A stretch of DNA of 64,000 nucleotides from Octopus vulgaris (lineage: Eukaryota). The notes under the pieces were generated by a model, which saw only the letters and a list, made by a program, of their open reading frames with translations, searched no databases and was not told the DNA's origin. The position numbers and the translations under genes are program-made. Below are positions 9,290 to 41,639 of this stretch, piece by piece. Positions within the stretch are counted from its first letter, which is position 1; each line of letters opens with the position of its first letter. The stretch lies in assembly GCA_951406725.2 (NCBI GenBank), contig OX597825.1:78988001-79052000 (forward strand), given 5' to 3'.

Positions 9290-9386
9290 CTTTGTTCGAT
9301 TGACTTGTGAATCATCACAAGGTGGTGGCGTGACATGTACTTGCGGAGCTATATGATGATGTACTTGTTGAGGTGGGTGGTGATGC

Positions 9387-9420
<34 letters not shown>

Positions 9421-9622
9421 GATGATGATGTTGAGCATGGACTGTTTGTTGATGTTGTTGTGGCTGCTGATGTGAATATGTATTATGTGGAGACTGCATG
9501 TGTGATGAGGAGTGCTGCTGGTGAGTAGATTGTTGAACATGGTGGTGGTGGTGATGGTGTGGGTGTGGGGTGCGATGGTGCATGGGAGGAGAGTAGGTGT
9601 TAACGTGGTGAGGGGCGGTAAC

Positions 9623-9659
<37 letters not shown>

Positions 9660-9802
9660 GCCACCGGCTGTTGTCCTCCTCCATGAGGTTGCTGTCTGTG
9701 AGGCACCTGGGAATACATGCATTGAAGCACACGAGAAGATGACTGGGATGATGCTGACCCAGAGACGCCAGTCAACCCACTGTTGGGATTGACACAGGAC
9801 AC
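9290..9802 (-). CDS. CRTC1: CRTC coding exon, Ser/Gln/His/Pro-rich low-complexity region
   Basis: 513 nt (171 codons), tgtcttag|GTG ... AAG|gttagt, phase 0/0, in frame with the previous exon. VSCVNPNS...Q12...H-run...Q12...VNRTK. Confidence 0.85.
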
Positions 9803-17401: not shown

Positions 17402-17711
17402 AGGTGGAGAAAGTGGCAATCTCATTTGGTTGACATTTGTTAGTACCAACGGACTTGGACTTGACTGTAGGTTCCGTCGAGCTGACACAGACTGCTGGGG
17501 CGGTGATACTTGAGTAGGAGACATGTTCATATTTGGAGACAGATTTATATTACTGCCAGTTGTGACGGATGAAGCAAAGTTCTGCTCTTCTTCATCAAGT
17601 GGTGTCACTAATGGTGAAGGAAACTGAAGTACTGATAAGTCAGGCAATGATCCAGCATGATTGGAAATTGGGATGTGCACACCAGAGTCCTGTTCTTGTG
17701 ATGGGTAGATG
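17402..17711 (-). CDS. CRTC1: CRTC coding exon carrying the GSLPDL second phospho-site
   Basis: 310 nt, ctgtttcag| ... CCT|gtaaga. Reads IYPSQEQDSGVHIPISNHAGSLPDLSVLQFPSPLVTPLDEEE...PLSPP, matching CRTC GGSLPDLTNxHFPSPLPTPLDPEE. Confidence 0.95.
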
Positions 17712-19700: not shown

Positions 19701-19744
19701 TTGATGTTGGGAACTTCACAGGATTTGGGCCGGACTTGACCAAG
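19701..19744 (-). CDS. CRTC1: CRTC coding exon (RPKSCEVP; start of PxIxIT-like calcineurin-docking motif)
   Basis: 44 nt, ttttctattttag| ... |gtaagt. Reads LGQVRPKSCEVPNI(N), matching CRTC1 RPKSCEVPGINIFP. Confidence 0.95.
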
Positions 19745-20469: not shown

Positions 20470-20531
20470 CTTTTTAGGGTCCCAGTACTTCATGTTATCT
20501 TGAACTGAATTTTCCTCAGCTACTTGAAGAA
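20470..20531 (-). CDS. CRTC1: CRTC coding exon
   Basis: 62 nt, tttttcag| ... AAG|gtagtt. Reads VLQVAEENSVQDNMKYWDPKK, matching vertebrate CRTC1 WDTKK. Phase 1 in, phase 0 out, consistent with its neighbours. Confidence 0.92.
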
Positions 20532-23018: not shown

Positions 23019-23110
23019 CTCTTTTATGAGTGGGAGGTGTGTTGGAAGTCAATATATTGTCTACTTGTTGCACCATTGTACTTGTATGTAATGCCGAATC
23101 TGAGTTGGTT
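23019..23110 (-). CDS. CRTC1: CRTC/TORC coding exon carrying the main SIK/AMPK-14-3-3 site
   Basis: 92 nt, acceptor ttttttgtag|, donor AG|gtaagt. Reads (R)TNSDSALHTSTMVQQVDNILTSNTPPTHKR. RTNSDSALH is the CRTC hallmark (CRTC1 S151/CRTC2 S171). Phase 2 in, phase 1 out. Confidence 0.95.
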
Positions 23111-39830: not shown

Positions 39831-40690
39831 AGACCAACTCAACCAAACTAAAAATATTATTAATTTCTAGTATGGTATCAAGTACTCTTTCTCCTGACAA
39901 TCAACACTAAACATGTGTGTGTAAGTGCATACTGCAAATTATTCTTAAAAAAAACAACAATTTGTACAAAAAAAAAATTTAATTAAAAAAAATTAAAGAA
40001 TGGCATTTAAAGAATAAGGAACTTGATTGAACAAAAGGCAAATTATTTAGTAAATATTTCATGATTCTGTAATTCTATCTGTTGGAATAAATTCTTTATT
40101 ACCATTTCATCCATTCAACTCATCACACACATTCACACTTTCAATACTTCACAGTAGGCTGGTCATCATATCACTTTTACAAACAAGAATTCAATCGCAG
40201 TAAGAAGTGTCATCATATTTATATTGTCTTATGAAGAGAGAGTAAACGTTATTGGCTTACAAGCATTGTTTTACTGGCTTGGATTCTAAAAAAATTAGAT
40301 ATAAGTCAAAAAGGGAGAAAAATGAATGCTTAAATGAGAAATATTCCGAGTAGTTCAGCAACAATCTATTATTGAAGTTATCCTTATACTATAATGCAAG
40401 GTTTAATTATTTATGTTAAACAATATGCGAGAGAATTTAGCCCAATGTCAAGGCTAACTTCAGAGTTTTCATGCTAAGTGTCAAGTCTTTCATATGCCAA
40501 TGCTTGTATTAACCACTACGGTCAGAGAATAAGAATTGTTAGTAGTTTTATTGCATTCATTAAATGTTTTCATGCAAAACATGCCCTGGAGCAGTAAGAA
40601 AGCAGTTCATACCAACACTGCCATCATTGCAGCCACCAAGATGCTAGGGAAAGGGGAAGGACTTAGACTGAGAGGCAATCACAAACTCAC

Positions 40691-40726
40691 CGGGGAAGTG
40701 ACACGCCATTAAGATGTGGGTATAAC
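40691..40726 (-). CDS. CRTC1: Candidate 36-nt in-frame CRTC cassette exon (LYPHLNGVSLPR)
   Basis: Branch-like cactaac, acceptor tattgcag|, donor CCG|gtgagt. Phase 2/2 and open; joins to give ...LPR-TNSDSALH. Confidence 0.7.
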
Positions 40727-41639
40727 CTGCAATATGTATAGGCTGTTAGTGTGATCAGGTTCAAAAAGCAAAACAAAGAACTCTTTATAATTTTAATTAA
40801 CAGTGGCCATTGGGTTTTGTTTTGTTTTTTTCTTCTTTTTTTTGGGGTTTTTTTTTTTTTTTTCTTTAAGAGGGATGATAGTAAATAAGGTGAGGAGTGA
40901 AGTAAAGCTGAATTTTATTCCTTGCTACTGGGTCAGCAGACTGAACTTCCATGAAATGGCAGTTCATCAAGTTTGAGATTTTATTAGGTTGAAAGCAATG
41001 TGCTCTCTGGCAAAAGACAGCCCTTTATGATGTTTAAATCTCATGTGATGAGAATTTTAGGCAAATCTCACTTCAAGCCTTTTCAACCATCATGCACAGA
41101 TATTTAAAAAACAAAACAAAACAAAAACAAAAAAAAACATTGAAACTGAAAACAAAAACAGGATAAGTAACTGAAGGTTTTAATAAAATGAAATATTAAC
41201 AAATAAAAATAACAGAACATAAAACAAATAAAGAATATATTTTAACACACATCTAAAAATAATTGTGTCAGTTCATTAAGGTTTAGTGAGTACACACGCA
41301 CACACACAACATACCTTTATAAAACTTTTTTTTTTTTAAATTATCAAAATAGCCAAATAATTAATGATTTCTGAATAAACAAACATCTATTTTTATAATT
41401 TGAAAATATTCAGCAGGTTACCCATTTCCCCAGGATGAAAGGGCATGTTATTTTTTTTTCTTTCTAGTTTTCTTACATTAATATTATAACTTACTATTTT
41501 AATCATAATTAGTAAAGGAGATTCTATTGCCCCAAACCAAATTTCACCACCCCCACCACCACCTTGAGTTTTTTTTTTTATTTAAATCAGAAAGATGACA
41601 CAAAACCTTAATATGATCAGACCAAAGACAATACCTTAA

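Follow-up and report, generated by a model that had tools for sequence, protein, structure and literature searches.

A mollusc-conserved cassette exon in octopus CRTC predicted to alter the context of the region II 14-3-3 site

Background

In memory and metabolism, CREB-dependent transcription is gated by CRTC proteins; memory itself has classically been studied in molluscs. Region II of the mammalian proteins carries a serine that serves as the gatekeeper for 14-3-3 binding, and CRTC1 differs from CRTC2 and CRTC3 in the three residues that precede it (PMC5325614). Exchange of these three residues reduced the activity of CRTC3 by more than 50% and increased that of CRTC1 more modestly, and the weak response of mammalian CRTC1 to cyclic AMP (cAMP), relative to CRTC2/3, has been attributed to its two arginines and a tighter binding of 14-3-3 (PMC5325614). 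Here we analyze a window of the Octopus vulgaris contig OX597825.1 (64,000 nucleotides, nt; by the window we mean this entire stretch, and all coordinates are positions in it), which contains a 36-nt cassette exon of the CRTC gene on its minus strand. This exon produces the same three-residue contrast; however, in mammals the contrast is between paralogous genes, whereas in octopus two splice forms of a single gene differ in this way. The two systems also differ in detail, as the octopus insert has 12 residues with Pro at position -4, and the mammalian CRTC2/3 inserts have 21-24 residues with Asn at this position.

The closest described exon is found in mouse Crtc2. The 69-nt exon MmuEX0012798 is alternatively spliced and is listed as eMIC-sensitive, that is, its inclusion is reduced when Srrm3/4 is lost (PMC8797185, table S2). 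Its length equals that of the 23-residue CRTC2 insert, with which we equate it by this length and a rough place in the gene only, and it shows no significant similarity in sequence to the mollusc exon. The octopus exon itself is already present in RefSeq, in the Octopus sinensis CRTC1 isoform set X1-X5, as an annotation with no function, regulation or conservation attached to it. In the literature covered, to which subscription papers mostly do not belong, we found no account of the cassette or of splicing as the source of the difference between CRTC1 and CRTC2/3. The available passages of PMC11333461 do not mention the exon; the main text, as far as available, of a preprint on octopus and amphioxus exons in 20 bilaterians (10.64898/2026.09.05.749416) does not contain the term 'crtc', although its supplements may list the exon. 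Thus the cross-phylum pattern and the mechanism appear to be undescribed. Cassette exons that remodel a phosphorylation motif are a known kind, and the division of splice states between paralogues is a general model.

The cassette exon and the region II site

The exon, its splice sites and the exon that follows it are as follows.

40726-40691, minus strand: cassette exon of CRTC, 36 nt, phase 2/2, frame-preserving, adding 12 residues
40727..40751, minus strand: acceptor region with a branch-point-like ACTAAC at 40750-40745, a weak pyrimidine tract and a second AG at -18
40685..40690, minus strand: donor GTGAGT, from sequence reading
23019..23110, minus strand: next exon, present in all octopus isoforms compared and carrying the region II phosphoserine (codon 23103-23101)

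The segment has AG/GT ends, a length divisible by three and no stop codon. Between the flanks ...gcag and gtgagt it consists of G, eleven codons (LYPHLNGVSLP) and CG; the last codon, CGA (Arg), is completed by the first base of the exon starting at 23110, and thus both ends of the segment are in phase 2. The ACTAAC motif begins 24 nt 5' of the acceptor. With a pyrimidine fraction of 0.53 and a longest pyrimidine run of 3, this acceptor is the weakest of the window's six CRTC acceptors, in keeping with a regulated exon. The intron on the 3' side spans 17,580 nt. A first-pass annotation made from the letters of this DNA had described the same 36 nt, phase and branch motif, and our reading of the sequence agrees with it.

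With the exon included, positions -5 to -3 relative to the region II Ser read Leu-Pro-Arg, whereas skipping leaves Trp and Arg at -5 and -4; counting codons from 23103-23101 bears out the earlier placement of Leu and Arg. The Ser is the equivalent of CRTC1 S151, CRTC2 S171 and CRTC3 S162, and the exon 23110-23019 agrees with the region II SIK/14-3-3 site in Table 2 of PMC8057676. The 3' end of the cassette (40693-40701, minus strand) encodes Ser-Leu-Pro at -6 to -4, an S-x-P arrangement like that of a 14-3-3 motif; only 3 of 34 distinct inserts have Pro at -4, so this feature is probably not general.

Both splice states are annotated in O. sinensis, where the RefSeq CRTC1 isoforms X1, X2, X4 and X5 include the cassette and X3 skips it (4/5 versus 1/5; the match is 100% in proteins P0002, P0003, P0005 and P0006, and absent in P0004). 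The cassette is thus already annotated as alternative, which confirms the status proposed for it in the first-pass annotation. By this sequence comparison the 36-nt segment is a cassette exon, whose skipped state is known from gene models. Over 40030-40810, two RNA-type contig sets showed no joint or loose end at the exon and did not reach it, and one of two runs from other organisms gave no match.

We surveyed 344 proteins with a region II site, which comprise 225 skip forms, 105 insert forms and 14 that could not be classified. Among the 34 distinct inserts, 33 of which were parsed cleanly, Arg never occupies -4, and Leu is at -5 in 31. The shortest, of 5 and 6 residues, are barely more than the residue swap itself; the 5-residue tunicate exon is in agreement with the swap as the core function of the insert. 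The earlier idea that a single gene toggles between CRTC1-like and CRTC2/3-like site contexts is matched by the residue swap, and the pattern is spread far beyond octopus. A further idea, that the exon creates an 'optimal' LxRxxS site, has to be revised in part. Leu -5 is indeed gained, and the included octopus form fits the SIK consensus LxB(S/T)xSxxxL (Leu -5, a basic residue at -3, S/T at -2, Leu +4), whereas the skipped form lacks Leu -5. However, what all inserts have in common is that the -4 Arg is gone, and in mammals the swap favours higher activity of the form that lacks it; inclusion is thus likely to loosen repression, and not only to provide an 'optimal' kinase site.

Based on this analysis, we consider it fairly probable that the alternatively spliced, mollusc-conserved exon of octopus CRTC, by changing Trp -5/Arg -4 to Leu/Pro, weakens 14-3-3 binding and raises cAMP responsiveness. 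By analogy with the mammalian proteins, loss of the double-Arg context would loosen the binding of 14-3-3; the included isoform would then be more cAMP-responsive and CRTC2/3-like, and the skipped isoform tightly held and CRTC1-like. Inclusion would be regulated, probably in a tissue-dependent manner, through the weak acceptor. The vertebrate CRTC1 and CRTC2/3 proteins may correspond to the skipped and included states of the same slot.

Conservation in molluscs and inserts in other animals

An insert at the position of the octopus cassette is also found in gastropods and bivalves: among 82 named mollusc proteins, 58 have such an insert and 21 are skipped forms, three being unscored. In a tally of only those species in which several isoforms could be compared, both splice forms are present in 12 of 13, all but O. 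bimaculoides; in Mya, other exons besides the insert are missing from the skipped model. In a leave-one-out test, 11 of the 12 distinct mollusc inserts scored above all 1000 shuffles (for the oyster insert, p = 0.42). This similarity indicates that the exon was likely present before cephalopods, gastropods and bivalves diverged. A chance open stretch as the identity of the 36-nt segment is ruled out by this conservation, and an octopus-specific exon by the inserts in other molluscs. Oyster CRTC (P0039/P0040, P0305/P0306, P0315/P0316) has, in addition, two alternative versions of the region II Ser exon, each combinable with the insert to give four site contexts; the pair has the appearance of an exon that was duplicated and is spliced in a mutually exclusive manner.

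Several deuterostomes also have optional inserts at this point: 13 residues in amphioxus (14 proteins with and 3 without, of 19), 5 residues or 15 nt in the tunicate Styela (4 with and 2 without, of 6), 17 residues in the hemichordate Glandiceps (1 with and 5 without, of 6) and 21 residues in a characiform fish CRTC3 cluster (7 with and 4 without, of 12). A 6-residue version is present in a JGI protein cluster, and a 23-residue insert in 6 of 9 named CRTC2 proteins. Some fish and frog CRTC2-like models (P0199, P0278, P0159, P0163, P0217) have no insert, which may reflect skipping, paralogue-specific loss or annotation misses. Length differences between skate CRTC1 isoforms (12 residues) and between starfish isoforms (5 residues) were considered as further cases and rejected, since they fall elsewhere in the protein.

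We detected no insert in any of the 68 jawed-vertebrate CRTC1 proteins or the 49 scorable arthropod proteins (51 examined), nor in those from echinoderms (4), annelids or brachiopods (3), cyclostomes (2) and Nematostella (1), several of these lineages being represented by single gene models, which are able to miss a short exon. A scan of metagenome records yielded 80 loci, mostly of the first exon, and in 10 of them both flanks of the site are present and split by an intron. Two (L026 and L028) were left out as apparent repeats of L025, leaving eight distinct introns. All eight animal loci have a phase-2 intron at the same codon, and no in-frame cassette passing our filter was detected in these short introns (0/8). 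The metagenome animal DNA contains two distinct CRTC types (L011, L014, L018, L022 and L025 versus L047, L054 and L061), and in both types Ala is at -3+1 of the junction codon and the introns at the site are short.

Candidate regulatory signals

Sequence motifs that could be involved in the regulation of inclusion are listed below, with distances from the cassette.

40571..40576, minus strand: TGCATG hexamer, candidate Rbfox site at +115, the sole full hexamer of the cluster
40580..40584, minus strand: GCATG pentamer preceded by G, at +107
40470..40474, minus strand: GCATG pentamer preceded by A, at +217
41091..41096, minus strand: upstream TGCATG at -370, a placement that would repress under the Rbfox rule
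40538..40543, minus strand: ACTAAC at +148, beside the GCATG cluster

The ACTAAC at 40538-40543 resembles the Quaking/STAR motif, and the next exon has an ACTAAC at about +165, too. A purely intronic contig of 604 nt (40054-40657) from one RNA-type run (X1) covers this region and may be unspliced RNA or DNA.

The downstream Rbfox motifs pointed out in the first-pass annotation are present as GCATG at +107, +116 and +217, but only one is a full TGCATG, and the constitutive next exon has a similar set (hexamer at about +230, pentamer at +150). Of 250-nt segments, 0.9% and 1.0% contain at least three GCATG, as do 0.87% of 3000 dinucleotide shuffles, which makes the cluster mildly unusual, although the segment tested was picked after the cluster was seen. 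One or more TGCATG are present in 10.8% of the segments on the minus strand and in 8.9% of those on the plus strand, so the single full hexamer is a 9-11% chance event. The motifs at 40571-40584 are unchanged in DNA of a second organism, which covers two of the three motifs; as this DNA is only about 1% divergent, their retention says little (p = 0.11), and the local conservation in this organism (E; 1/326 versus 5/333 differences) is not significant. Binding of Rbfox downstream of an exon promotes its inclusion (PMC10551640), and the cassette resembles Rbfox-activated exons in having a weak acceptor, a short length and (U)GCAUG on its 3' side. On the other hand, the clustering is modest, a hexamer also lies upstream, and TGCATG is present in 6 of 8 equivalent introns of the metagenome animals where no cassette was detected. 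We thus regard neural or muscle inclusion driven by Rbfox at +107 to +221 as possible but rather unlikely.

A second candidate is the neural short-exon programme, in which inclusion would depend on the eMIC domain of Srrm234 acting on the weak acceptor. Like neural microexons (Srrm3/4, eMIC), the cassette is short and frame-preserving, with a weak acceptor and a strong branch motif; a strict microexon is ruled out, since its 36 nt exceed the 3-27 nt of the definition. The short length, the weakest acceptor of six and the CTAAC branch motif are features of eMIC exons (PMC8797185), the mouse Crtc2 exon is eMIC-sensitive, and the tunicate version of the exon is 15 nt long. However, the AG at -18 precludes a long AG-exclusion zone, the pyrimidine tract is short, and the sole TGC near the acceptor, at -5, lies inside the acceptor itself. 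The zebrafish neural exon table in the available part of PMC12626424 has only an unrelated 105-nt crtc1a exon, and neither crtc2 nor crtc3; in addition, such programmes are described as largely rewired across lineages. We consider this dependence unlikely, at a level slightly below that of Rbfox, and the two regulators as comparable candidates.

Alternative explanations

The direction of the effect could be reversed, if inclusion mainly makes a better SIK/AMPK substrate that is more phosphorylated and more tightly repressed. The included form is an exact fit to LxB(S/T)xSxxxL, the skipped form having Trp at -5 (PMC8057676), and Leu at -5 prevails among the inserts. Nevertheless, CRTC1 S151 is already listed as a SIK site in its skipped-type context (PMC8057676), the mammalian swap associates the double-Arg context with lower activity, and the amphioxus and Glandiceps inserts, which have Met and Ala instead of Leu at -5, still drop the Arg. 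These observations make the reversed direction improbable. Of similarly low probability is a cassette that is near-constitutive in octopus, with skipping as rare noise and no working switch: 7 of 8 named octopus isoforms include the exon, but 12 of the 13 tallied mollusc species have skipped models, the cephalopod-like assembled proteins P0010 and P0304 are of the skipped form, and no other acceptor in the gene region is as weak. Against the proposed loosening of repression by a regulated exon we count that O. bimaculoides has the included form only (3/3 isoforms), that the skipped form comes from annotation models, and that the better fit to the SIK consensus could push in the opposite direction. 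Similarly, the gain of CRTC1 on receiving the Leu-type context was modest (PMC5325614), the octopus Pro at -4 differs from the residues swapped in mammals, Leu -5 is missing from the amphioxus and Glandiceps inserts, and the mollusc insert has conserved residues beyond -5/-4, so that it may do more than exchange these two.

A separate question is whether the inserts share one origin or were gained independently by molluscs, amphioxus, tunicates, hemichordates and vertebrates in the same old phase-2 intron. Position and phase agree in all lineages (for vertebrates, the protein-level position and the first residue), and 33 of 34 distinct inserts begin with Arg or Ser, the remaining one being a parsing slip. 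In a gapless alignment, the octopus and amphioxus inserts match at 5 of 12 residues; the anchored test gives p = 0.01-0.02 (uncorrected, 10 targets) and the local test against shuffles 0.16-0.24. Comparison of mollusc inserts with seven vertebrate inserts yielded best p values of 0.01-0.05 in single tests, most being above 0.1 and none robust, and no robust similarity was detected to the Styela or Glandiceps inserts. Common ancestry with the deuterostome inserts would thus be a matter of position, with marginal support from sequence. Independent gain is also in agreement with the range of lengths, from 5 to 24 residues, with the insert-less arthropod, echinoderm, annelid or brachiopod, Nematostella and metagenome loci, and with known cases of exon convergence at the same place (10.64898/2026.09.05.749416, as far as available). 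On the other side, the oyster insert fails the similarity test though it is within molluscs, which indicates that short disordered exons can lose recognisable similarity. We give a single origin with losses about an even chance and repeated gain in the old intron a somewhat smaller one, with mixed histories making up the remainder. It is conceivable, although we hold it only tentatively, that the vertebrate duplication divided the two splice states, so that CRTC1 lost the exon and CRTC2/3 kept it, still skipping it at times.

Other exons of the octopus CRTC gene

Downstream of the region II exon, the window contains four more coding exons.

20470..20531, minus strand: CRTC coding exon, from a match to CRTC proteins
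19701..19744, minus strand: CRTC coding exon, from a match to CRTC proteins
17402..17711, minus strand: CRTC coding exon with a TORC_M match (region III site), from Pfam and protein matches
9290..9802, minus strand: Gln/His-rich CRTC exon, absent from some isoforms

In total, six coding exons were mapped in the window, from the cassette through to 9290. Exon 17711-17402 matches Pfam TORC_M with an E value of 7e-13, and this open stretch is 100% identical to the RefSeq O. sinensis CRTC1 isoforms and 98-99% identical to those of O. bimaculoides. Full-length proteins matching the exons of the window bear PF12884/5/6 (TORC_N, TORC_M, TORC_C), and the N-terminus of the octopus protein P0006 resembles the solved structure of CRTC2; no solved structure covering the region II site was found. 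This part of the protein is probably disordered, and 14-3-3 binds it only when the serine is phosphorylated. No TORC_N or TORC_C exon was found within the 64-kb window, which also lacks the exon 5' of the cassette (0 exact 7-mer matches to residues 1-129 of P0006). The preceding exon lies more than 23 kb upstream, beyond the edge of the window.

Other parts of the gene vary as well. The Gln/His-rich exon 9290-9802 is missing from O. bimaculoides isoforms X6 and X7, and about 75 of the residues that it encodes are absent in the O. sinensis RefSeq proteins, which may be due to an assembly gap or a length polymorphism. Further optional segments of octopus CRTC (P0002-P0006, P0010) are the region I site exon, which X5 lacks, along with a 5-residue and an 18-residue segment near the C-terminus.

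Biological meaning

One exon that switches the same three residues within one gene, in many lineages, would provide an evolutionary origin for the difference between the vertebrate paralogues. If the vertebrate duplication did divide the two splice states, what distinguishes CRTC1 from CRTC2/3 today would be the fossil of a splicing switch. Two predictions are testable: the response to cAMP should be isoform-specific in molluscs, and exon-skipped vertebrate CRTC2/3 should act like CRTC1.
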